Positions 7,598 to 53,874 are shown, counted from the first letter of the whole stretch. The stretch is DNA of 61,470 nucleotides, filler included, from Sphacelaria rigidula (GCA_964200075.2; 8 parts of 8 records of this genome joined end to end with filler, not necessarily neighbours in it), one strand, 5' to 3'. The notes: generated by a model not told the origin, from the sequence alone. Made by a program: numbers and translations.

Positions 7598-7697
7598 NNN
7601 NNNNNNNNNNNNNNNNNNNNNNNNNNNNNNNNNNNNNNNNNTTAATTAATTAANNNNNNNNNNNNNNNNNNNNNNNNNNNNNNNNNNNNNNNNNNNN
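7598..7697. other. Artificial contig spacer (N44-TTAATTAATTAA-N44)
   Basis: 100-bp spacer with stops in all six frames; identical spacers at 15295, 22991, 30687, 38383, 46079, 53775. Confidence 0.98.
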
Positions 7698-8110: not shown

Positions 8111-11100
8111 TCAGTCATAATCAGTGAAGGTGACCAGATACCCTTGGTTCGCATCTCCGCCTGTCGACGACCTCGGCAAGTTCCAGCAGGGGAAAATATT
8201 GCCAAGTTGTTCGCCAATGCATCGACTATAACACTGGACAGGAACCACGCGCAAACAAACTCTGTACACATACAAACGATGTTCGAACGAAGCACGCGGT
8301 TCAATTGAGATGAGCATTGCCATCTCCAACGAGGAGCTGGTCATCGAAATGCGGCCAGTGGTTGGCCTTGTTGCTGACACCAGCGTCTAGCATGGACACC
8401 GGTGTACCGCCACCTCCTCTGCCAGCAGGTAGTAGCGGAGAAGCGCGCGAATGTGCTTCATCTTTGACGTCGCCATCCCAACTACCGTGCACATTGTTCT
8501 CGCCGTAGTCATTGCGTCGTTTTGAGGGAGGGCCGGAAGAGGAAGCAAGCCTCGAAGGCGCTATCCTGTCGTGACCAGGGCGGGAGCGTTATACGTGAAG
8601 AGTAAGAGAGCGGAGAGGAGTGAAGAAGGCAGAGTGAGATTATGGCACTTACGCCAGAGAGTTCCGACACACGACCCCAGGCATTTGAGGATATGCCGTT
8701 GATTGTGTTGCGGTAAAGGAGCGGGGGCGCACACATGCGAAGCATATGGAGTAAATCAGTATCATGACTCAGTACAGGGTGGCGCGATCAGCGACGGCGC
8801 ATCATTGAGAATCATCACCATATGTTTCTCGCAGTTGTATTGCCTCTTGATACTTGCTCCTCACGTGATACGACGCGCTCATGTGGTTCCCACACTATTT
8901 GCTGGGGGACACAACAAGGCTTGGCGTCTCTCATGGAACCCACTAGACTACCCCCACCACTCACAACGGAAAAGGAATGCCGCGACCCCGACGTGCTTTC
9001 CGCGATGATTCAGCCGGAGGAGGACCCGCTGGTGCAGGGATATCCAATTTATCGCGAGGTTTCCTCGGCGACGCACCCTGCCCGTTGCTGGCGTCACTGC
9101 GATATTTGATGTCTTCTTGTTCTGTCCCGATACTCCAGGAGCGAACGTTCTCCACGCGTCCATTGTCTGCCTCCTTAGCTGCGGCTTGAAGAGCCTGAAC
9201 CGCTGCAGTAGCCCTTCTCCGATGTTTCTCAATCTCTAGGTTCAAGTCATAACTGGCTTCGTCATCTTCCGAGTCACTAACGTCCACGGGTCCGCGGTCT
9301 GCCGGCGCAGCGAGCTTCTCCTCCAGGCGAATCGACCGGGGCTATTCGTCATCAGGAGCGGCGAGATTGAACGAAACAGCGCCGCTGAGTTGGTTGGCAG
9401 GACGAGGATTGCAAGTAGGGGTGTAAGCATTGCTGGTCGGTGTTTGAAAATGCAACTTTCACAAGGGGTTTCAGAGAAGTACTGCGAGGCGGTGTGCATG
9501 TTCTAAGGCGCACACCCACGAACGGGAGATGGTCGTGAATGGCGGGATTTCCCATAGAGGGGAATTTTCCCTCGCTATTCTATAATACGAGGTTCGAGGT
9601 TTGGCAAAGCGGTCGTGTCAACACATCACTTTGTACGCCGGAATAATTGTAATCCTGCCTTGCGAGACAGCAACAACTCATGGAGGGTATCGTTTTCTAA
9701 GTGAAGAAAACAAGGAGCAGTCTCTGTGTCATTGACCTGCCGAGGTTGTTCGCCGTCGCTCCACTCCAGATCTGCTGCACTTCGCCTCCGGCCTTTCACC
9801 GAAGACTTCGCGACACTACCACGCTTGATGTCTTTGGCTTCAGACGAATCCGGTTGTCCGCATCGGCCCGAAGACTGCGAGTTTGAAGGGTGGTCGGAAA
9901 GGAACTCTTTCGGCGGTGGAAGTACAAAGGCATGTCTCGAGCCCTCCCCTTCGCCTGGTGCTCTCGATATGTGTGGATGTAACCGAAACGCGGTTGTCCC
10001 GCTCGGGCGGGACCGCTCCCAGCTGAGTTCAAACGATGGGGCAGACATCTCAATATCGCCCTCTTCAGTTCGCGTCACTTCCCCCTCGTCGTCTTCATTG
10101 CTGTGCTTGGACTCCGCCACGTGTGGTGACAGCTGGCCTGCTTCATTGCTGATTATGCACGGTTCATTCCGCCGCTCGTGGTTCTGCCTTTGTTCATGTC
10201 CAACGTCATGGCCGTCGTCCAGATTAATTGTGCTCTCGTCATCATCGTCAGTACCCAGAGGGTGGAGATCCTGCTGTTCCGTAACATCGTCGTGACCCGC
10301 ATCCGACTTAACACCATGCTTGTCGACACTGTGTTCGCCGGAGGGGGATTTCTTATCAAGATCACTTTCGACTCCGATACTAGAGCAACTGTCAGAGCGG
10401 CGGTGTTTGTCGCCTGTGGTGAAGCTTCGTATTATATCGTCGCACTCTGCGTCGCTCGTCCAACTTCGCTTCTCCGACCCGGCGCTCTCAACACCTTGGC
10501 GATCCCCCTCTTCTACGTGCTTGCTTGTGTTTGACTCTGGGTCACCCCCGTGACGGATATTATCGGGTAATTCCTTGCGACCATCTCCGGATTTCTCTGT
10601 TTCCACTGCCACGTATTTTTCCCGTTTTCTTGTTCCACTCTGACAGCTGGGTCTACTTTCTTGCCCATCCCCATCGTCATTATTTTCGTTGCCACTACTA
10701 CTAGTGCTTCCTTTCTGAGCGGCCGTCGCCCCATCTCTGAACACATTAGCCCTGCATTTTCCTGTGTCGCTGTGATCGTAGCTAGCTCTAATTAATAGTC
10801 GTTCGCTCTCCCCAGTCCGATCGTGCTGTTCATCTTCTTCGGACGACCTGCTCCGCTCGTCTTGACTCACGGAGCGTCTACAATACTCATCATCTACGAC
10901 TACCGTATCATCATAGTCGTTGATGACCCCGTTGCTCGAGCGGGGAGGGTCACTTGAGCCGCTGAAACCCTTTAGGTGTGCTAAGCGCGCGTCGCCGTCA
11001 TGTTCCTTTGTGTTTCGGAAATATCTCTCTTTTCCCGGGATTTCACCGTTATCTTGGGCTGGGACGGCCTGGACGCTGGTCGTTTTCTTGAGCAATGGTG

Positions 11101-14100: not shown

Positions 14101-14599
14101 TGTGACCTTACTGAGATTCGAACTCACAATCCAACCGTGAGACTGTTTCGAGGTTACCGACTGAGCCACCGGGGCGACCGGCACACATACATGGGCACAA
14201 CTGGGTGGACAGCTCGTACGTGCACGTGAAAGTAGCGGTCATATTACGGTGGTAACACACGTATAATAAAATGGCTGTGCCTCGTTGTGGTTTGAAAGGA
14301 CCAGCAATCACTGCTCCGACGCTAATAATGCACATATATTTCATATTTTTTCATCTGTGAATCACCCACGCACGTTCGAGCTTGACGAAGGCTTCAGGGC
14401 AGAGCTTCACTAAGCCTGTCACCCAGCGATTGTGCTCTGCCCTCGTTTCCGCGTACAGGTGAAAAGTTCGCGCCGTCGAAGAGATTATCATGGTGTCTTT
14501 GTCTTCAGCGATTTCTGTTATATCCCTCAGATACACCCAACCGCGTACCTCCGGATCCTCAGCGTGTTTGTAGTAGCATAGCGCCAGATCGAAGAGTCC
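8111..14599 (-). CDS. PH-domain protein with long acidic/disordered C-terminus (5'-partial, 5 exons)
   Basis: Exons 14599-14374 (GLFDLALCYYKHAEDPEVRGWVYLRDITEI...RTFHLYAETRAEHNRWVTGL, C-terminal half of a PH fold), 11106-9737, 9341-8965, 8565-8381, 8160-8111 (TGA). All AG/GT-bounded, phases 1,0,2,1 compatible; last exon least certain. Confidence 0.8.
9737..11106 (-). CDS. Large 1370-bp exon of the PH-domain gene (D/E/S/G-rich low complexity)
   Basis: Body of the 512-aa ORF 9626-11164; acceptor CTAATCAACGCAG|GC phase 1 matches the PH exon donor; donor CAG|GTCAAT phase 0. Confidence 0.8.
11385..11644. mobile_element. MITE, same family as 48067-48317, opposite orientation
   Basis: TTTCTACGCAGCCCCCCCC ... 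GGGGGGCTATCGTAGAAAGTGTC; internal sequence aligns with the reverse complement of 48067-48317. Confidence 0.8.
11690..13330 (-). pseudogene. Decayed KDZ (Kyakuja-Dileera-Zisupton)-type transposase in intron of PH gene
   Basis: Across frameshifts and stops, in order: CTGTCKSR..., TACGVDVFSSPCGIAVGYM, HEGC, RPNMI/SNDMYSLRATL, HFPNYK...C...NDP, NSRIRLYAHH...HLRIRHN. Order resembles the KDZ core (Cxx...G....pCG, E, PxxxxD, H...C...P, ExxNS). Confidence 0.6.
13355..14179 (-). mobile_element. tRNA-derived SINE, interrupted by insertion 13420-13884
   Basis: Minus-strand head GGTCGCCCCGG-TGGCTCAGTCGG (A box, 14168-14157) ... GAGTTCGAATCTC (B box, 14125-14113); body shared with 7390-7597. Confidence 0.8.
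13420..13884. mobile_element. 465-bp TIR element with 4-bp TSD (GGGC), a 90-bp terminal palindrome and internal Pol III A/B boxes
   Basis: GGGC|TGTGACGGTTTAAGAG ... CTCTTAAACCGTCAAA|GGGC; 13795-13884 is a palindrome with 45-bp arms and 3 mismatches; uninterrupted site seen near 7449. Confidence 0.85.
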
Positions 14600-15201
14600 C
14601 TGCGATGGGGGGGGGGAGGAGGGGGTTGGCCAATACCGGCAACGAATGTCCGAATGAGACGATGCGCACTTTGTGGCCGGAACAGAGATTTGCATGTGTG
14701 CTTTGCCAAGGGTTTGATGGGAGAATATTTTCGGACACGGAGCCCCCCCACCCCCCCTCTCGGAGGGCAATTGTCAAAAAATTTGTCACGACTTTTTCTC
14801 CATGTTATTCAAGAAATTTACAAAGAAACACTGACAAAACCGAAAATTCTGGTGGGCTTTGCGAGGTTTCTCTATTTGCCTCTGCTCCTTGCCCGCTCTA
14901 ATGTCCCGATGACCTCGGACGCCGGTCACCCTCACAAACATGTACGCACACGAGCGCACGGTAGCGACAGCCTGCAGCCAACGTAGCAACTTCATTTCAC
15001 GCCTCGCCACATTTTCCCGGACCACTGGTAGATACTCGAGGCCCACGACACGTAATATTATCCCATAAACGAAATAATAGTAAGCAATGGACTCCGGGGG
15101 GGCGGCGTGTACACCATCTCATCGGTCTCCATGCCAAGGATCTCTGTAGACGGTAGCTGACCGCAACCGCCAACACTTCGGCAATAAACTAGGGACAGCG
15201 G

Positions 15202-15294: not shown

Positions 15295-15394
15295 NNNNNN
15301 NNNNNNNNNNNNNNNNNNNNNNNNNNNNNNNNNNNNNNTTAATTAATTAANNNNNNNNNNNNNNNNNNNNNNNNNNNNNNNNNNNNNNNNNNNN
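15295..15394. other. Artificial contig spacer
   Basis: N44-TTAATTAATTAA-N44. Confidence 0.98.
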
Positions 15395-15946
15395 CACTAC
15401 TGTATAACTAACCATGGGGGTGTTCAAATTCCGATGCGGTCCTCTAAGCACGCGGTCCTCTCACGTATTACAATGTAGTACCGTTTCATTCGTATTTCAG
15501 ATATACTTACACGTGTAGCCACATAACCACGTAGGATACTGCAGTAAGAAGTGTGCCGCTATGGTTTGTTATACAGTAGTGTACGCCATCAAGGTAGCTA
15601 GGTCACGTAGCTTGCCATAGATCTAGTCTGCGAGCTGGAAAGACCCACACGTCAGTAATATTGAATCGAGGATACGATTTGATCTTACGTGCGTGCGTGT
15701 AGGGACCCTGGCGTTTTGTTCCAGGTTTGAGGATGTTTAGACCCGGTCACCTCTACCACCCATGCATTCACTCTCCTCTTTTTCCTCAGCCCTCTGCTTT
15801 TCAAAGGGGCTATTTGATTTTGTCTTGACCAAGTGAAGAGCCCCCGATAAAGTATCTGTCTTTCGATCTTCTGCTGCAGAAGCAAGTGGTCTAAGCACCA
15901 TGGTGCAGCTACTGCCATATGCTACTGTCTGCGCGACGGTAGTCCG

Positions 15947-16163
15947 TCTAATGCGTGAGAGGACCGCGAGCTTGGAGGACCGCATCGAAATTTGAACATC
16001 ATTATGGTTACGGTTATGGTCAGGGTTAGGTTAAGGGTTAGGCTTATAGTCAGGGGCGTGGTACCTTTAGGGACTGACCCGATTAGTTTTGAAAAACGTC
16101 GATCTTGAGGTGCTTTGAACTACGGCGCGGTCCTCTAAGCACGCGGTCCTCTCACGCAATAGA
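15947..16163. mobile_element. TTAGGG-containing MITE (degenerate copy)
   Basis: TAATGCGTGAGAGGACCGCG ... CGCGGTCCTCTCACGCA TIRs with internal GGTTAGG repeats; a further right-end fragment at approx. 15405-15471. Confidence 0.8.
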
Positions 16164-16318
16164 ACAGTACCACACAACACGAGCCAATATTTCCAACAGT
16201 GCAAGCTTCAACCAAGGCAAAGTGACAGGAAATATATGTACATATTTGCTATACCCGCAACAAGTCGTATTCCGCCTTGATCAAACGGAGGCAGATCAGC
16301 TGCTTGAAGTATACTTAC

Positions 16319-19300
16319 ACTTGATGGGGTGGAAACGCTCCCACTTGTCGTCGGCTCTCCCACGCTTCGCCTTGAGGTCGGTCGGATTTCGCGGTACACC
16401 CTGCTCAGACCCCGATAACGCCATCGGTCAGTGGGTGGGGCGCAAACCGCACGATGGAACATAGGTACAAGTTTCAGCATCGCTAGCATGTTATCAAACT
16501 TATCGTGGGGCATGGGGTAGGTAGAAGCATGTGGAATGTTCCACTGAGTATTGTGTATGCTTTGAAGGATAGCGAAGTTATATGCCGCTTGTACGGATGG
16601 CGGCACGCGTGAGTTGATCGCGAAGGACACATGTTGAGTCTCAGCTTCAAGACACGTCGCACATGTATCGTGTGTTTTGGTGCAACGTGAGTGAGGAAAC
16701 CCTGCCCTTTCTGTGTTGCCAACACAACCACAAATATGTTTCGTCAAGCACGCACGTACACAAACACCCAGCCATCAAACCTGAAACACGACTACAACAC
16801 TATGGTGTCGGGAGGAAACGGTGGCCACATGTAGCGCAGTCGGTTCCATGAGGCTTGTTGTATGTGTACACTCCCAAAACATCTGTGACTATCGACTAAT
16901 GTCAATGTGGCTTGGAGCCTTGGCTTCGGAGCCGGAAGTATGTCAGCGCACGGGCTGACGATGATCTCCGTCAACTATACTCTCACCGCACGAATCATGC
17001 AGTGCACGAGTCCTGTAAACTCATGTGCACGTGTATCCAGAAGAGGCATCTGCAAAACTCGTTACCAGGTCGACAGTACCTCGACCGGGATGCGTGCGAT
17101 TACTTCCGTCGTTTCGGTTGTCAGCCAATTTTCAATTGTTGCCGTGCGGTCGTTGGCGGCAAGTCTCTCATATCGTCCCAAGAGCAACTAATGAAGGGGG
17201 GGGGGGAGGCACTGCCCCGGGACCGCCGAATGGGAGGAGAAAAAATTAACGCAGAGAAACAGGCCTCTTCCTCACCTTGGTGGGGTAAGTGACGGACTCC
17301 GGTGCAGTATCCTTTCCAGTACGGACGTTGAATCTTTCCCACGCGTACATGGTATTGCTCCTGCCGGCAAGGGGCATTACGATTGGTCGCAACACGCATG
17401 AAATCAGCTTCTTCAAAACCAAACTCACATATAAATGGGCTTCAGGAGAACCTTCAAGTCGGGTAAGGGTTAGTGAAACTGTGCTTGTTGTGCCTCAAGC
17501 GGGCGGTGTTCTCCACCACGGCTATAGTTTTACAATCTTTCCAGCGTCCTATTTCCTCCAGAGCCATGCTGCAATAGGGGGGCGGGGGGGGGGAGGGGAG
17601 GGTGTTCGATTCCACGAAAAAATGTGCTCTTAGATGCGTCAAAGGGCCTGAAACATTCGCGGCGCACTTATATTTGGGTAAAGGCGGCGTAAAGCAGTAT
17701 GAATGGGCGTGTTTTGTCGAAATCAATCGCGTTCGAACACTAGTTGGCTTTTTTCGACGGTGATTGAAGTGCAATTTTATGGCAGAAAACGACCAAAAAT
17801 ACCCCCCCTCCCCCTATCGTAGCATGACTCTTCAACGATCGTCAGTCCAGTCCACACACGCGTGGGAGCTCCCAGCAATCACAACAAAAACAGGACAAAT
17901 ATGACCACGCTATGAGAGGAACCTAGGCGAGGCTACCTTGTGCCGATGTGCATGCGGTACACCGAGCCACGGACAAGTCCCCACTGTAGCAGGTACTTGA
18001 AGATGAAGCAGCCAAGGCAGAAGTTTACGAACCCTTGGAGAGCCGTGGCCACCGCCAGTCCAACCTGATGCGACGATACGCACGCATGGTATGGTGTGTT
18101 AGCAAAGTGGGTGGGGAGGGGCAAGGTTTGCACTAAATTACGAGCTTTCCTTTGCGGCCCGTCGTACGTTGCTGTCGTGATATTTCATACGAGGAACGTG
18201 GGCTGAGGAGTGCTTCATGTGTTGAATCCCACGTATCTGATGAAACTAGGCATTCGCGTCTTACTAACTGTCTGACCAATGTTTTGGACGGGACTATGGC
18301 TAAGCCACAGCATTCGACGCACATGGTGTTCGGACGGAATGGGCGGTGACGCAAGTTGATTCCCCTTGGGTTACCTGACGCGGATATCGTGAGTAGAGCA
18401 CCAGTCAGCGACCGAATAAGAAATTTTGCCACAAAAACGCAAGGACTCTCACCAGAAAAGCTTGGGCAGCGATTGTGTAGTCCAAGAGGAGAAGCACCCA
18501 AGCCACGAACGCCATGAAGATCCCACACAGGTTTGCGAACTGCTTAGACGCTCCCGGGCTGCCGATGTACAACGTCAGGGAGGCAGGTACACAACAATTT
18601 AATGTTTCAAAAGTGCTCTGAATAATGTTGTTGGGCTCTGTACTCACTCGCTCACAAAACGTTCAACAGTGTAAATTCCAAACCGGGGAATAGTGTAATG
18701 CGTGAGAGGACCGCGTGCTTAGAGGACCGCCCGGTAGTTCAAAATATCTCAGGATCAACGTTTCCCAAAACCAATCGGGTCAGTCCCTGCAGGTACCATG
18801 CCCCTGACCCTAACCCCAACACTAACCCTAACCCTAACCATAGGGGTGTTCAAATTCCGATGCGGTCCTATGAGCACGCGGTCATCTCACGCATTACAAT
18901 AGTTCAACAACGGGTTTGGAACGATAGTGTCAGATTCACTCGAATGAAACGAACCGGCCTAGAAAGTATAGGACAGACCTTTGGCGTTTCGCTCAGAAGA
19001 CCCGTATGTTCCACGACGGGGGGGGGAATGGCAGCACGAGACGAAAATGTGCTCGAATCAGGAATTTATCGGCTATTAGGCCACCGAATAATACGTAAAC
19101 ACGCGTCGCACGGGGGACGGAGCAGCAACATATACACTGTTGGGGATGTGGTGCAGTGGTACGGGAGGAAGTGAGACCGCACGCTTGTGTCCAAATTCAA
19201 CGCTTTCAGTATTGAAATATATCTGGTGCTAGTATGTGGAAAGATTTGTGGCACTGGATGGAGTATCACATGGTATGGGTCAAAGATGCAGATAGCTATT

Positions 19301-21929
19301 CCGTGTACCCACCTTAGGTTCGGTCTAGTGCCAGCAACGGGTAGGGCCGCGAGCATGCCGAGGGGACTCGGGAACCCCCCTAGCTTGAGAGCGAAGTCTA
19401 CCGTCAATCCTAGCACCTGTGGTTTAGGACCACACAACAGATTCAGAAACGCGTCCGAGCAAGGCTGTGAGCCGTGGCAGGGGTGGGAGGTGAGTGGATC
19501 GTCAACGCCGGGTGGGCAACCAAACACGTTCGTAACGACTCGACACCGACCGGCCGAAGGTAAAGAACCGATGGTTTGTGTTCAAACAAAAGCCTCACGC
19601 GCAACCAGGCATCGAAAAAATGCAAAAAAAAAACAGCTCACCACCCACTGCGTAGCATCCCTGTTGGCAAACCAGCACGTCACTGCGGAGATGATGAAGC
19701 CCCAAACCCCATTTAATCGGACCACCCGATTGTCCACGGTGGGCGGGGAATGAAACGGCAGAAAAAAGGCAGCGTCGGGTCCAGGGTAGGTAGTAACCGC
19801 CGCCGACGCTCCGTCGCCCTGTATGGATCCGAATAACCAATCAACAGCAACGTTTTGTTTCAACGTGCAAACCAGCGTGAAGTTTTGCTTTTATTTTTAT
19901 CCACATTTTATGATAGTACCCTTCATACTGTTAAACTGAATTGTAGACCATGCACTGGTCAAGATGTGCGTACGCTACCAAGTGCTCTGGACTAAATTAT
20001 ACATCTCGGGCAACCCGATTTACTCGACAGCGATTTGCCACGACACCTCTCGGTCACGTTTAGATCACTGCAGGGCGGGTATTGGAAGTCGGTGGTGCCG
20101 AGTTTGTAGAAAAAATATTCGGGTGCAGTCGGAGAGCGTGGTCAACACTCCACAATCAAAGAGAGGACATCCGAACTAGTCTCGTGTCTTGTGTTGGTAC
20201 CATACATATGCCTTGCTCACAGTACGCCCGCCTTGTTCGATAAAACCTTCAAACCTCGGAAAATATTTTCATCCCTGACTTCGGGGGAAAAACTAGGATC
20301 GACTCACACCTTCTTTTGCGTCGAACACGCACGGATACCACTTCGCGGCGGTGCCGGCACCATTTGTGGCTCTACACCGTTCTGACTGGAGGGTTCACGA
20401 GGTCTGTGTATGGTACATGCAGATGCATAGGATATCGTAGACTGAAAAGACGAGCCCCCGTGAAATATGACGAGGAACAGGAAGAATCTGTAGAAAGATC
20501 CCGGCAAAAGTTCTGGGTGGATCCCTATGCCCTCATGGGGGTATGTCAATATTTTTGCGAACACCGGCGGCAGTGGCATTACGAACAACGGTGGGAAAAA
20601 AACAACTCCAGTAAATAAAACCAAAAATAATGGCGAAACTCAAGCCGCGAAATCCTCGAGGCTGCTGCACCTTCATGAGCACTCCAGCCTCAGCGTCTTC
20701 CAAGCTGGAGTGGTCGTGCACCGCCTTCAGCCTCATGCCGAGGTCGCCCGTAGCGTCCAGCGCCTGACGTGGCATGTGGCGGGTGGATGTGGTGCAAAAC
20801 GAGTGGAAGGCACAGGTGTTTGGCGAACAATTCGAAGTCTTGATTAGAAGCTTGACGTTATTGTTTTGCCATAAATTCTCCCCCTGGCTGTTCAAGTTTG
20901 TGTCCTAGATGGAACTAGAGGCCAGCACGCGCGTGTTTACTGACTGAGCGTTCACAACCGTGGAGGGCCGAGAGCACAGTAACCCGACGATCGACCAACC
21001 CCCGTCGAAGTGAGTTCTGTCCAAAGTGTCCGTCGCAGCCGAGCTTAAGGGTTGTCCCTCGTGGACTATTTTGTTCAAGTGTGGAGATGTATTCAGGTGG
21101 GCGGTCTTCGGGGTTTGCTGAACTGGTGGTATACGGGGTCCAAAAAAACCCGTCGGTTCCGCATTTGGTTTGGATTGGTGGCCATGATGAGGGGGAAAAT
21201 CAAACAACGTCGAGTGAGATAATGAGAACAACTGATACTGGAACATACCATTGGATACTCCGAATACATTAAGATGAACCAGAAACCGATGTTTCTGTGC
21301 GACATCGAGGGCGAACCGCATTGTGCCACCCCGCCGTTCGATGCTGTTGCGTGGGCTATGTATCGAACGCTTGGGGATGTTGGAGGACGGTGAAGGCCGA
21401 AGCTGGGATATGTGATTTAAAGATTCTCGCTTCAACATCGAGATAAAATGGGTCACCATCGTTAGTATCATCACAGTTCATTATGACCGCCACATGTGGT
21501 CAATGAAGAAGGTATAATCCAATACCTTGAGGTTGTCGCAGCCACCGATGTGCTCCTGGTTGATCCATATTTGAGGTACAGACGTCCTGCCTGTGATGGC
21601 GGCCATTGCCTTTCGCGTCTCTGCCATGTTCGCCGTCTGGTGAGTGCATTGAAGTAGAAAAGGAAACAATCAAGGGATATTTTGTACGCTTTCATTGACT
21701 ACTACGTGAATACTTGAAACGGAGTTTCCTAGTCGCTCGCCGAGAAAGGGCGTTTCAAAAGAAGGCCATGAGGACTCGCTACTTCACGAGGTCGCGGATC
21801 GAAGTGCGACCATGTCAAAAATACTTTCAGCAATATACTACTGGTATGTCTGGTGATGTGGTACCAGTGTACCTTGTCTATGTCGATGAACCGGCCTGTG
21901 ATGCCATGAGCCGCCAGAGTACGCTTAGC
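16319..21929 (-). CDS. Glutaredoxin + DUF4395-like membrane domain fusion (partial at both ends, 10 exons, approx. 338 aa)
   Basis: Exons 21929-21873, 21636-21526, 20763-20671, 20381-20310, 19818-19642, 19416-19313, 18558-18453, 18064-17937, 17360-17276, 16400-16319; all AG/GT-bounded with compatible phases and no stops. Confidence 0.85.
17561..17830. mobile_element. MITE with GAG...CTC ends (Sola-like), intronic
   Basis: GAGCCATGCTGCAATAGGGGG ... CCCCTATCGTAGCATGACTC; flanks TCCA/TTCA; a related end at approx. 53905-53932. Confidence 0.55.
17937..19818 (-). CDS. DUF4395-like membrane domain exons of the fusion gene
   Basis: PPTVDNRVVRLNG..., VDFALKLGGFPSPLGMLA, PGASKQFANLCGIFM, ALQGFVNFCLGCFIFKYL resemble the DUF4395 VD..R / SPL / K.FA...G / FCLGC pattern. 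Confidence 0.75.
18694..18898. mobile_element. TTAGGG-containing MITE, TGT...ACA ends, 4-bp TSD ATAG
   Basis: ATAG|TGTAATGCGTGAGAGGACCGCG ... CGCGGTCATCTCACGCATTACA|ATAG; internal CCCTAA repeats approx. 18808-18839. Confidence 0.9.
21526..21929 (-). CDS. Glutaredoxin domain exons (active-site exon not in contig)
   Basis: AKRTLAAHGITGRFIDIDK + TANMAETRKAMAAITGRTSVPQIWINQEHIGGCDNLK, with the Grx (T/S)VP and GGxD motifs. Confidence 0.9.
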
Positions 21930-22091
21930 CTGATTCCAGACAGGTCAGGGTAGACGACAGCATAACACGATGTGTCAACGCAGGCAACAGCGGTAGAAAC
22001 GGTAGCGGAGGGAGCAGAGGGAGCAGGGGGACAGGGGTGACAAGAACCACTCGCCGTCAGACAAAAGTCCCTCTTTTGTTGCTCGCGCCGC

Positions 22092-22384
22092 TGTAATGCG
22101 TCAGAGGCCCGCATGCTTAGGGGACCGCATCGTAGTTCTAACAAACCCGCAGGATCGAACTTCCTCAAAACAAATCGGGCCAGTCCCTGCAGGGACCATG
22201 CCCCTGACCCTAACGAGCAATGCTACGATAGGGGTGCACGTTTTTCGCGAAATTATGTCTAGTTCAGGGGCTCCCAACGATTCTAGACGCACAAAAATAT
22301 GGGTCAGGGCATTCTAACCCTAACCAAAGGGGTGTTAAAACTCCGAGGCGGTCCCCTAAGTCCGCGGTCCTCTCGCGCATTACA
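22092..22384. mobile_element. TTAGGG-family MITE with 4-bp TSD CCGC, carrying a fragment of the GAGCGATG MITE
   Basis: CCGC|TGTAATGCG ... CGCATTACA|CCGC; approx. 22215-22311 matches 61100-61190 and the reverse complement of approx. 29460-29555. Confidence 0.85.
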
Positions 22385-22990
22385 CCGCAGTCTGGCATCT
22401 CAAATATGGAGAACGCATCCACCCCCCGGATATTTTGTTCAAGAGGTCGACGCCGCGCGCTTACAATCCAGGTTTATTGGGCTGGATTTCACGTCCTATC
22501 AGCCGCTGTCAAATAAATGCTATCTTCGTGTATCAGGGCAAATATCATGCACGTTTTCAGTTGAGACGATTTTCAATATATTTTGCATCATGCAGCCCAT
22601 ATTGTTCGTCATATGGCCACAAAACTGTTTTTTGTAACAGTGTCATGCGTGAGTGCACCACGTGCTTTTCGGACCCCATCGGGGTTCAAACACGCGCACG
22701 GTAAGGGTTTTGATTGGGGTTGGTGTAATGGTCAGGGTCGGGGGCGCGGTCCCCGCACGGACTGGCCCGAGGGGTCTTGAAAAAAATCGGTCCCGGGGTG
22801 TTATGAACCCCAATGCGGCGTCAAAAGTAAGCGGTGTTGGAAATTTACACAGCCAGCAATCTAACGGTATATCTATTGTGTGAGTTTTTACTCTGTAGCA
22901 AATTAGCGGGACAACTAGTTACGGTTCGGGTAGTCGGATAATAGCACAAATCTAACCCGAGATTCCGGGTACAAGTACCTCTTTTATATG

Positions 22991-23090
22991 NNNNNNNNNN
23001 NNNNNNNNNNNNNNNNNNNNNNNNNNNNNNNNNNTTAATTAATTAANNNNNNNNNNNNNNNNNNNNNNNNNNNNNNNNNNNNNNNNNNNN
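22991..23090. other. Artificial contig spacer
   Basis: N44-TTAATTAATTAA-N44. Confidence 0.98.
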
Positions 23091-26955: not shown

Positions 26956-29899
26956 CACCGGCCTCATCTCTACACCCTTCTTCTTCAAAACGCTCATAAC
27001 GTGCTCGCGCATCGAAATCTCCTGGGGGCTTTTCAGGGGTGGGGTCGGGTCCTGCCCGCCGATTTCCTGCAACCACAGAATCGGACAAGCACGTGACAAG
27101 CGGCGGCGCGGAACAAAAAAGCCAAGGATGCCGTTGAGCACGCGCAGCAGAGAGGCAAGAGCGGGGTAGGTACTGGGGTAGGTACTACGTGTGTTACAGG
27201 TCTTTCCTCTAACTGCGCCCAAGGCGTCAGGGAGATTTTTGCGTGCCCATACTGAAAAACATATGTACAAATCAGGAGAGAACACACTGAAAAAAAAAAG
27301 AAACGTTTATCCGCTCGACAAGGAAAAACAGGGGCACGCCTCTACTATCTAAACGGGGAACGGGACAGCCGACAAGAGGGACTTCTCATCATCCCGGGTG
27401 CTGTGTGGCTACTTTCACCCTCTGCGCGCCCTCAGATGGGAAACCCAGAGCCATTTTAGGAACAACAAGTACCGTGCAACACGGTGTACTCGACCCCCGG
27501 TTGGTATCACTTCAAGACCTAGAAAATTAATGCCGAACGATAAGGAGGTATTCAGGGGCCAGAGGGGGGGCGTACTCATTTGTTGCTTGCCTTAGTCGTG
27601 TGACTGTTGACCACGCATCCCTTTCGAGACGGAGCATTCAGGCCTTCAGGGGCGGGGGGGGGGGGGGGGGGGGGGGGCACGTTCACCCGCTTGGCGAAGA
27701 GGTGGGTAGCTGGCGGGAGGATATACTATCTTGTGAAAATAAGTAGATGTTGCTCGCTCGACACCGACACCGTTTACTGGAAACCGATGGATCGGGGAGT
27801 GGGGGTGGGGGTAGGAAGCGTGCTAAATGAACGCCACCGATATCCAACAGCGGAGGCGGGGGTGAAAATAATAGACGTGGGTTCCGTCAATCCCTTCAAT
27901 TGAGACTCCGGACTCATCCCGAGGAAATAAAGGGGTTACGAAAAGTAGTGATGGAAAAAAAATAAACGAGATGGGCGTCAATTTCTTGCGCTTTACTCGT
28001 GTATCATTCTAATATATTGAGATAAGCATATATAATATACACATAATACAAAAACCAGCGAGATGAAGAAATACAGGAATATATTTCGCACCTCCGGAAC
28101 CTTGTCCAAATCGACGAGTTCCTCGAGCTGAGGAAGGAAACTCCCGCCGCATACGACCACTTTAGCCCTCGTGTTCGGGTGCACGAAGGGAGACACGAAC
28201 TGCCGCAGCACAGAAACAAGGTGGGGGGGTGGGAGGGTGTAGTCATGATCATGCATGCCATAGTCATAAGATCAATGACCTTGCATCACTAAAAAGCCGG
28301 GACGGAGCACGCCGGGTTTTCGCCGAACCAGACTCGCAGTCAGTCACCAAACGCGAAGCGCCGTGACGTTTGCCGAGTCGCATGAAGGGTGAGCCGCATT
28401 CTGCGAAGATTGTTCGGCCCGAAGCCTACTGATTGTCTTGCATTTGGATGGCAAGCTACAATGAGAGGGGGGGGGGGGGGGGGATCACAACAACAACTTG
28501 AACCAACTGAATATGCCAGAAATTGAAGGAGAAGAAAAATCCTGGCGAGAGAGACACCAGGTATTGGAGGGAAAGCATGATACAGAGAGACATGCAGACG
28601 AATCGGACCAATTGAAAACGAAGAGAACGAAGAGAACGAAGGAACATTCAACAGTGACGCTCTTTCAATGTAAAGCTTGAGCACAGAATACCGGCAAGAA
28701 TGGTGCAAAACGGGACCGTGAACATCGGACGGGATGCAGGTGATGAAACAGAACAGCATCATAACAGTTGTAGCCAGGTGACTTGTGGACGTATGGACGC
28801 ATATGGAGGCGTGGGGGGAGGGGTAGAAAGTATGCTGCGAACATAAATAGTTACAAATATCTAAACTGCGTTTGCTCTTCTCACCACCTGGATCATGCAT
28901 AGAGAACAAGAACATGGCTCTCATTTCGTCATTTTATTTAGCACGAGGCTGTCTGGCCCTCCTACCAGCAGGTAGGCCTTAACCGGGTATTCAGTTATGA
29001 ATGAAAATGACCGGCGCTTAAACTCAAGCCGTTTTTTCTTCCTTTCAAGTGGGGGGAAGGGGGGAGGGGGATCAAAATCATCTGCGTCCTTGCAAGAAAA
29101 ACGAAAAACAGAACAAAACGAAACAAGAAAAAAGAGAAGAAAAAGAGCAAAGTACCGTCACTTCCCTTCGGCTGATGCCAAGATAGCCCCCCAAAGAAAA
29201 GTGGCTGGTTGAAGGAGGCAAAGTCCGCATGTAAATCGAAATGACAAACGACGGGCGCACCGAGCAGCTGAGAACTCCCACGCTTGCGATCCTTTCTGGA
29301 GCGATACTACAGTAGGGGTGCACATTTTTTCTCAAAGATTAGAATTGTTAGTAGCCCTTCATCCGATCCGAAGCACGACTTATGAAACATGTGAGAGTAC
29401 GACAGGAATACTATTCCAACGTGCTGAGGATTTTCCCGAATGAATTCGCAAACAGGGGTGCCCTGACCCATACTCTTGTGCATCTAGAATAGTTGGGAGC
29501 CCCTGAACCAGACAAGATTTTGCGCATAAAGTGCACCCCTACCGAAGCATCGCTCTCTGCCAGTGTCGCCGATATGAGGCGCTTAATACAGTCTGAAATC
29601 AGCCATCACGCGCTGTATGCCCATTCTCTTTCTGGTATTTTTGGGGGTTAGTATCGCGGCATCACTGCTTCGTAAAAGCCTCCTTCGTGACATAACTTCC
29701 AGTCTCTTCCCGAAACGAACACACACACTAAATCAAAATCAAACCAAGTATACCATAGCTCATCATCATGGAGCCTTGCCGGACGCAGGTTCACCTTCCA
29801 GACGAGGCTAAACCACCACGGGGCGTTGAGGATGAAGATCTTGTACGACCGCTCGGGGTAGTGCGCGCCGATCATTTTGGCAGATCGCACTAGGAACTC
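26956..29899 (-). CDS. CRAL-TRIO/Sec14-family lipid-binding protein, 3' exons (partial)
   Basis: Exons 29899-29795 (EFLVRSAKMIGAHYPERSYKIFILNAPWWFSLVWK), 28199-28092 (FVSPFVHPNTRAKVVVCG...VPE), 27066-26956 (EIGG...); all phase 0; contains the YPER/NAP/PF..T..K/P.E.GG signatures. Confidence 0.9.
27562..27650. repeat. Dispersed repeat end, also at approx. 38305-38382 and 61395-61470
   Basis: GGGGGGCGTACTCATTTGTTGCTTGCCTTAGTCG..TGACCACGCATCCCTT.CGAGAC in three contigs. Confidence 0.8.
29299..29555. mobile_element. MITE with GAG...CTC ends and 4-bp TSD TCTG (Sola-like)
   Basis: TCTG|GAGCGATACTACAGTAGGGGTGCAC ... GTGCACCCCTACCGAAGCATCGCTC|TCTG; second copy at approx. 61100-61350. Confidence 0.85.
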
Positions 29900-30024
29900 C
29901 TGCAGGAGCGAAGACGGAGGTTTAGGGCAGGAGGTGAGGGAATAGGGTTATCTGGAGTGGGCAGTAGAGAACAGGGTTACGTGATAAACCGTTACTTGAA
30001 CTATTAACAGTCCTTCAACATCCG

Positions 30025-30686: not shown

Positions 30687-30786
30687 NNNNNNNNNNNNNN
30701 NNNNNNNNNNNNNNNNNNNNNNNNNNNNNNTTAATTAATTAANNNNNNNNNNNNNNNNNNNNNNNNNNNNNNNNNNNNNNNNNNNN
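30687..30786. other. Artificial contig spacer
   Basis: N44-TTAATTAATTAA-N44. Confidence 0.98.
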
Positions 30787-38382: not shown

Positions 38383-38482
38383 NNNNNNNNNNNNNNNNNN
38401 NNNNNNNNNNNNNNNNNNNNNNNNNNTTAATTAATTAANNNNNNNNNNNNNNNNNNNNNNNNNNNNNNNNNNNNNNNNNNNN
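38383..38482. other. Artificial contig spacer
   Basis: N44-TTAATTAATTAA-N44. Confidence 0.98.
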
Positions 38483-46078: not shown

Positions 46079-46178
46079 NNNNNNNNNNNNNNNNNNNNNN
46101 NNNNNNNNNNNNNNNNNNNNNNTTAATTAATTAANNNNNNNNNNNNNNNNNNNNNNNNNNNNNNNNNNNNNNNNNNNN
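46079..46178. other. Artificial contig spacer
   Basis: N44-TTAATTAATTAA-N44. Confidence 0.98.
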
Positions 46179-53774: not shown

Positions 53775-53874
53775 NNNNNNNNNNNNNNNNNNNNNNNNNN
53801 NNNNNNNNNNNNNNNNNNTTAATTAATTAANNNNNNNNNNNNNNNNNNNNNNNNNNNNNNNNNNNNNNNNNNNN
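53775..53874. other. Artificial contig spacer
   Basis: N44-TTAATTAATTAA-N44. Confidence 0.98.

Follow-up and report, generated by a model that had tools for sequence, protein, structure and literature searches.

The closest described systems are the plant anion channels SLAC1, SLAH1 and SLAH3 (PF03595), bacterial TehA with the TDT family (Mae1, SSU1), class I dithiol glutaredoxins (Grx; PF00462), the mostly stand-alone DUF4395 proteins of bacteria (PF14340) and hemerythrin-like HHE domains of the FBXL5 and Rv2633c type (PF01814). SLAC1-type channels are gated by kinases in plants, where the SLAC1 N-terminus is the kinase target, and are bare pores in bacteria and fungi; the N-terminus of SLAC1 and of TehA is cytosolic. 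The window analyzed here, 61,470 nucleotides of DNA from the brown alga Sphacelaria rigidula (GCA_964200075.2), contains on its minus strand, from 21929 to 16319, the front (5′) half of a brown-algal gene in which a Grx is joined to DUF4395. This gene is very probably the 5′ part of a Grx-DUF4395-SLAC1/TDT-hemerythrin protein of ~900–950 amino acids, an architecture carried in full by P0004, a complete 929-residue homologue from Ascophyllum nodosum.

Nine minus-strand exons with GT-AG boundaries, 943 bases in all, splice into 314 amino acids with no stop and with phases that agree at every joint. Transcripts were compared in four of the eight listed sequencing runs: three RNA-like runs of one study (X1–X3, their kind being guessed), in which cover is limited to exons with GT-AG joints, and one of unknown kind, which covers all 30 bins, introns too. 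Contigs without mismatches to the window are called exact.

21873..21929, minus strand: exon 1 in the contig, 19 amino acids; Grx helix and strand right after the active site.
21526..21636, minus strand: exon 2, 37 amino acids; C-terminal half of Grx (Pfam PF00462); on an exact RNA-like contig.
20671..20763, minus strand: exon 3, 31 amino acids; last Grx helix and beginning of the flexible linker; on an exact RNA-like contig.
19642..19818, minus strand: exon 4, 59 amino acids; end of the linker, DUF4395 helix 1 and start of helix 2; on an exact RNA-like contig.
19313..19416, minus strand: exon 5; DUF4395 helix 2 and loop; on an exact RNA-like contig in part.
18453..18558, minus strand: exon 6; DUF4395 helix 3, KQFA motif and a third Cys (codon 18525-18527); PF14340 at E 0.004.
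17937..18064, minus strand: exon 7; DUF4395 helix 4 and CLGC (18008-18019); PF14340 at E 0.003.
17276..17360, minus strand: exon 8; soluble linker from DUF4395 to the channel; on exact RNA-like contigs of X1–X3.
16319..16400, minus strand: exon 9; end of the linker and an open phase-1 donor, beyond which homologues go on to SLAC1/TDT helix 1.

The exons encode in order the Grx (SVPQIW..GGCD), a linker, hydrophobic segments, FCLGC and a final segment, with the open donor at 16318. Exon 2 alone exceeds the Pfam Glutaredoxin cut-off (28.3 vs 22.9 bits) and holds both the cis-Pro motif SVP (Pro codon 21574-21576) and GGC (Cys codon 21538-21540). DUF4395 is marked by CLGC, by exons 6 and 7, which match adjacent portions of the PF14340 profile below its cut-off, and by the close relative P0001, which scores above it (62.1 vs 24.5); the exon-by-exon Pfam scan gave no relevant family for five of the eight exons scanned, exon 1 being too short to scan. 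The 314-residue model aligns gap-free with P0003 (74.8% identity, 298 columns) and is 89.1% identical to P0001, 89.9% to P0002 and 62.8% to P0004 over 320 columns, exon 5 being 100% identical to P0001 over 34 amino acids. Since the match to full-length brown-algal proteins reaches 63–90% identity at E values of 1e-78 to 1e-162, the exon model is not due to chance. The re-derived model agrees with the first-pass annotation of this DNA in both ends, in the in-phase, stop-free minus-strand splicing, in the order of motifs and in the open donor, but comprises nine exons and 314 amino acids where ten exons and ~338 amino acids had been proposed. A tenth exon is excluded by enumeration of candidate exons, by the gap-free P0003 alignment and by direct RNA joints across exons 2-3-4 and 7-8-9. 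In P0004 the CPFC active site of the Grx lies just ahead of residue 46, where the alignment with exon 1 starts. A tblastn search of the whole window with seven homologues found no additional exon of the gene, so the active-site exon and the 3′ exons lie outside it, as had been stated for the contig. No CPFC-type motif occurs in the three minus-strand frames of 21930-22990, a protein search for the active-site exon returned only a partial Sphacelaria model whose match starts at the same exon, and a metagenome scan found none among 598 candidate stretches.

The RNA-like runs place the two domains on a single transcript. Exons 2-3-4 lie on one exact contig in each of the three runs, and bin depths extend the same contig over exon 1, whose bin has the RNA depth expected from the contig carrying exons 2-4; because this contig spans exons 1-4, Grx and DUF4395 are transcribed together. 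Exact contigs likewise link exons 7-8 (joint 17936/17359, CT..AC ends, X1–X3) and 8-9 (joint 17275/16399). Joining of exons 7 and 8 across CT..AC ends makes the TAG at 17933-17935, which follows the exon 7 donor, intronic, and read-through to it is rejected as it is spliced out in all three runs. Neither outcome against which the annotation had set its reading, Grx and DUF4395 in separate genes or termination at this TAG, is what the transcripts contain. That the Grx and DUF4395 exons belong to different genes, or that the protein ends after DUF4395, is largely refuted and extremely improbable: besides the exact contigs joining exons 2-3-4 and 7-8-9, an exact X1 contig of 569 letters runs ~370 letters beyond exon 9, and collinear full-length homologues exist. 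What speaks for such an arrangement is that the loose ends at 16319 in X2 and X3, which when read by hand continue into SLAC1 helix 1 just as P0002 does, come from contigs that are probably paralogues. Collinearity with the homologues and these paralogue ends together suggest a TDT pore in the window gene itself. At the other end, exact contigs reach 135–197 letters upstream of exon 1, which fits the 45 codons that P0004 has there. Variant letters at 16356-16372 and 17309-17336, in RNA-like runs and in the run covering all bins, suggest several paralogues in the same organism, depth here giving no copy number.

A protein search of 1.84 billion representatives returned 92 proteins at E ≤ 1e-30. 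The SLAC1/TDT domain (PF03595) is present in all seven close homologues; P0001, P0002 and P0003 carry DUF4395 and SLAC1 above cut-off, and in P0004 the Grx, whose site is CPFC, the DUF4395, the SLAC1 and the hemerythrin modules each exceed the cut-off. The likeness of the final segment to the linker before SLAC1/TDT in algal DUF4395 proteins, which the first-pass annotation had suggested, is borne out, as the homologues run straight into SLAC1/TDT; the C-terminal hemerythrin-like domain, the pan-eukaryotic spread and the third DUF4395 cysteine had not been foreseen. In a domain scan (threshold E 0.001) of 48 of the 150 listed representatives, picked for length, SLAC1 was found in 48, DUF4395 in 46, Grx in 33, Rdx in 2 and hemerythrin in 29, with all four modules in 23. 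The two Rdx domains, of SelW/SelT type, occupy the Grx position in P0051 and P0053 of Salpingoeca macrocollata, and an unrelated redoxin at that position suggests selection for a thiol reductant there. In P0035 of Raphidocelis subcapitata there are two Grx domains, and the hemerythrin site is degenerate.

The family extends across stramenopiles, green algae, red algae, holozoans and Discoba, spanning four eukaryotic supergroups. Members named so far, from a lookup of 30 that yielded names for part of them, come from Ostreobium, Myrmecia, Tetrabaena, Raphidocelis, Pedinophyceae, Mesostigma, Porphyridium, Creolimax, Pirum, Salpingoeca macrocollata, Diplonema, Papus, Tribonema, Choristocarpus and Ectocarpus. 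In a 60-row tree built on DUF4395 and the adjoining linker, from which rows with at most 150 residues there were left out, the window gene groups with P0001 (100/92) and P0003 (100/100) within a brown-algal clade (100/99). The Ectocarpus cluster P0030/P0194 forms a second, distant brown-algal subfamily. Database labels of members are piecemeal, such as ‘Glutaredoxin-C6’, ‘S-type anion channel SLAH3’ and ‘tellurite resistance protein’. A search of full texts listed no paper describing a Grx-DUF4395-SLAC1 fusion; DUF4395 as such came up in two papers, a single time in each. Couturier et al., in 2009, are said perhaps to mention an algal Grx fused to a dicarboxylate-transporter-type domain. In the portions consulted, PMC2173943, PMC13621322 and PMC6920818 do not describe the fusion. 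The family is widespread in eukaryotes and apparently unstudied. The fusion architecture is already visible in automatic Pfam annotation; this analysis adds the RNA evidence for the Grx-DUF4395 joint, a clade of brown algae in which the iron site is degenerate, the exchange of Grx for Rdx and, for DUF4395 in bacteria, the cysteine motifs on its tails and the arsenic genes near it.

AlphaFold2 models P0004 with a pLDDT of 90.2 and a pTM of 0.89; disorder is limited to the first residues and the Grx-DUF4395 linker (residues 120-149, pLDDT < 50), the part to which exon 3 corresponds. The closest fold to its pore is that of bacterial TehA (3m71; Z 41.1, root-mean-square deviation (rmsd) 1.7, 305 residues); TehA consists of the pore only, and P0004 falls far under the NCBIfam TehA and TDT cut-offs (76 vs 342; 72 vs 237). 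Plant SLAH/SLAC1 structures match at Z 33–41, and SLAC1, SLAH1 and SLAH3 entries (PDB 9m7r, 9m7s, 7wnq, 7en0; Z 34–41) have the same ten-helix fold. They are also the best PDB sequence matches of P0004 (E 1.6e-13) and have in common with it the Phe-Pro motif of helix 9, but are only ~20% identical to P0004, in which Grx and DUF4395 form the N-terminus and a hemerythrin-like tail follows the pore. The pore Phe of helix 9 (F630 of P0004), present in 62 of the 64 rows of the family alignment on which all residue counts here are based (each over rows that span the site or have the residue), aligns to this motif of SLAH3 and SLAH1 and is presumably the gate residue of TehA and SLAC1. By fold and gate residue the family belongs to SLAC1/TDT and not to plant SLAC1/SLAH, from which it is set apart by its N-terminus and the ~20% identity. 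In the part consulted, PMC3509319 separates two groups of algal TDT proteins from the clade of SLAC orthologues and leaves glutaredoxin unmentioned.

The Grx of P0004 superposes on class I Grx at Z 17.7 (rmsd 1.1, 99 residues), with which the family shares the SVP/TVP cis-Pro and GGC, as well as CPFC in the orthologue P0004; it differs in being tethered to a membrane protein. The consulted part of a 2026 review (PMC13621322) names GRXS17 and class IV DEP/DUF547 fusions and not Grx-DUF4395-SLAC1. In the model DUF4395 consists of four long helices, and its CxxC opens a short helix after the fourth. The even number of crossings would place the Grx, the CxxC and the linker that leads to channel helix 1 on one side of the membrane, predicted to be the cytosolic one if the pore has the orientation of SLAC1; the charge bias is weak and consistent with this. 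Foldseek gave no match to the DUF4395 fold at E 0.001, and the best VIA-align hits (Z 7.6, rmsd 7.9, 99 aligned) are generic bundles only, so these searches found no known structural relative of the modelled domain, which is short of proof of a new fold. Structural matches to the tail include the hemerythrin domain of FBXL5 (Z 12.4, rmsd 2.8 over 151 residues) and a homologue of Rv2633c (Z 11.4, rmsd 4.4 over 148 residues); these matches are weaker and lie among generic bundles, and the Atlas feature score of the domain is 0.94.

The DUF4395 CxxC cysteines are conserved in 61/61 and 60/61 rows. A third DUF4395 Cys, in helix 3, is present in 32 of 60 rows, the window gene included, and is V, I, L or G in the other 28. 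The first Grx Cys is kept in 35 of 37 rows, with CPFC in 17 and CPFC or CPYC in 19. In the tail, which lies outside the window and, unlike other HHE domains, is attached to a channel, all six ligand positions of the H..HxxxE..H..HxxxE pattern are intact in 42 of 62 rows, including P0004. P0001, P0002 and P0003 have lost three to four of these six iron ligands, the sites of P0001 and P0003 reading HNKRAE and HHKRNE vs HHEHHE, and since these are its nearest kin, the tail of the window gene is probably without a di-iron site, as its clade is degenerate there. The CPFC exon of P0004 is missing from the closest annotated kin, P0003 and P0184.

These losses raise the question of whether the window gene is a degenerating or deregulated paralogue, its Grx without catalytic cysteines and its tail without iron, to which a thiol switch would not apply even if true of the family. 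The grouping with P0001 and P0003 (100/100 with the latter) and their eroded iron sites point that way, as does the active-site exon, found in no annotated protein of the clade; paralogue contigs also exceed the window copy in word depth in the RNA-like runs, a poor measure of expression. We regard it as improbable. SVP, GGC, all three DUF4395 cysteines and the open frame are retained, the exact contigs past exon 1 leave room for the 45 codons of P0004, and the gene models of P0184 and P0001 bear the label partial, their matches starting at exon boundaries.

In a second alternative the DUF4395 cysteines would bind a metal or an iron-sulfur (Fe-S) cluster, with the Grx as donor or as keeper of reduced ligands, and together with a di-iron tail would tune the pore to iron status. 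It draws on the hemerythrin ligands intact in most rows, on tail fold matches that include FBXL5 and the Rv2633c homologue, and on the 13 of 28 bacterial DUF4395 proteins in which a second CxxC is accompanied by a two-Cys motif at the C-terminus. We nevertheless consider it quite unlikely. Grx sites are mostly CPFC/CPYC, the oxidoreductase type, which binds Fe-S clusters poorly; the nearest kin that have lost three to four iron ligands still hold all three DUF4395 cysteines; and the Z values of the tail, 11–13, are in the range of generic helical bundles.

Our preferred reading, which remains tentative at somewhat less than an even chance, is a TDT-type anion channel regulated by a thiol relay. 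In this mechanism glutathione would reduce the tethered class I Grx, which, on its flexible linker of ~30 amino acids, would reduce or deglutathionylate the CxxC at the end of DUF4395 helix 4 that presumably faces the cytosol. The ordered linker of ~70 amino acids would then transmit the state of the CxxC into channel helix 1, shifting the Phe gate. In most members the di-iron hemerythrin-like tail would add an iron or O2 input; in the brown-algal clade of the window gene this input has probably been lost, leaving the thiol input. As such, cellular redox state may control anion flow through one protein.

Several observations weigh against this relay. Among the 48 long representatives, at least six (P0031, P0041, P0068, P0078, P0097 and P0152) have a Met start and no redoxin, so some of the family can do without a tethered one. 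The catalytic cysteines of the window gene are off the contig, and its closest annotated kin are without that exon. Besides cycling as a disulfide, a conserved CxxC can serve to bind a metal. Joints 5-6 and 6-7 were seen solely on an X3 contig with 7 and 12 differences, a paralogue, and the step from the window exons into SLAC1 was read only on paralogue contigs. The remaining two points come from bacteria, where 28 DUF4395 matches were collected from 19 genomes, mostly of one phylum, and 81 of 93 neighbouring frames were scanned at 26 of the 28 loci: no thioredoxin or glutaredoxin gene adjoins DUF4395 at these 26 loci, and the genes that do occur include arsenic-type ones.

The bacterial proteins share the four helices, a KQFA-type motif and C-x-[GA]-C with the eukaryotic domain, the last kept in 28 of 28; they differ in that each has an additional Cys motif on its own tail, either an N-terminal CP motif (15/28) or the second CxxC and C-terminal two-Cys motif, whereas eukaryotic DUF4395 sits between a redoxin and a channel. 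Arsenic-type genes (ArsC, two low-molecular-weight (LMW) ArsC-like, ArsB and ArsP) lie within ~1.5 kb of DUF4395 at 5 of 26 loci; one ArsC is above its cut-off, the two LMW ArsC-like matches are below the NCBIfam cut-offs and the ArsB is partial. A sixth, ArsP-like neighbour was recognized by eye (L012), and in one genome (G016) DUF4395 lies downstream of an arsC-arsP-arsB run. Other neighbours are Rrf2 regulators at three loci, a thioredoxin reductase at one and a sulfhydrylase at one, with unrelated genes at most. A rough background of 31 arsenic-gene matches in 10.3 Mb, from five genomes that we picked among those with hits, gives ~0.3 of 26 loci as expected. Material bearing on a possible thioredoxin-DUF4395-rhodanese neighbourhood in actinobacteria was scant, plasmid searches yielding 1 and 2 records and a genome scan 2 loci.

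This neighbourhood does no more than point towards a role with metalloids or sulfur, and it favours the main rival to the thiol relay, a reduce-and-export detoxifier or sulfur-species transporter. Grx electrons would pass to the two or three DUF4395 cysteines, which would reduce or hold arsenic, selenium, tellurium or persulfide species for the TDT pore to move, the cysteines being catalytic with no gate switch. The TDT family includes TehA (tellurite) and the SSU1 of fungi (sulfite), which counts for such a role, as do the excess of arsenic-type neighbours over the rough background, the Rrf2, thioredoxin reductase and sulfhydrylase genes, and the third Cys present in the window gene and about half of the eukaryotic rows. 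We judge it unlikely, as the bacterial loci are mostly of one phylum and not independent (L019 and L027 are near-identical), the background genomes were our own choice, most loci have unrelated neighbours, bacterial context need not apply to the eukaryotic fusion, and the third Cys is replaced in 28 of 60 rows.

The thiol-relay reading may be extended to the whole family, a possibility that we put forward with reserve. DUF4395 would be an unrecognized membrane thiol-relay module, and the four-domain protein an old, self-contained, kinase-free sensor channel whose single TDT pore integrates the redox state of glutathione with iron or O2. It would have been kept in four supergroups, with the redoxin swapped at least once (Grx for Rdx) and with a brown-algal expansion of paralogues, some without the iron input. 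If so, a SLAC1-type pore would be controlled in a different way, by a built-in Grx, an invariant membrane CxxC and a di-iron domain, in seaweeds, in green and red algae (including the streptophyte Mesostigma), in animal relatives and in diplonemids. DUF4395 would gain a testable role, with candidate reductant, target and read-out within one protein, and the natural variants (iron site lost in the brown-algal clade, Rdx swap, redoxin-less members) are ready controls.

The gene lies on the contig 15395-22990. The window is a string of separate ~7.6 kb contigs of S. rigidula joined by spacers of N, and because the spacers join unrelated contigs, genes are not to be read across them. The spacers and a repeated element resembling a miniature inverted-repeat transposable element (MITE) are as follows.

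7598-7697, 15295-15394, 22991-23090, 30687-30786, 38383-38482, 46079-46178 and 53775-53874: N-spacers, each of paired 44 N flanking a fixed 12-base word.
15947-16163, 18693-18900 and 22092-22386: MITE-like element, with partial copies at 15408-15474 and 22641-22798.

The MITE-like element is ~210–295 bases long, with terminal inverted repeats of 40–55 bases and internal telomere-like TTAGGG-type runs, and its depth in run X5 is thousands of times the single-copy level. On the neighbouring contig, minus-strand exons at 29793-29900, 28092-28199 and 26956-27066 resemble by eye a SEC14/CRAL-TRIO gene (HYPER..IFILNAP). At ~14370-14600, also on the minus strand, an exon resembles by eye a PH domain and is followed by a long low-complexity exon near 9740-11100.

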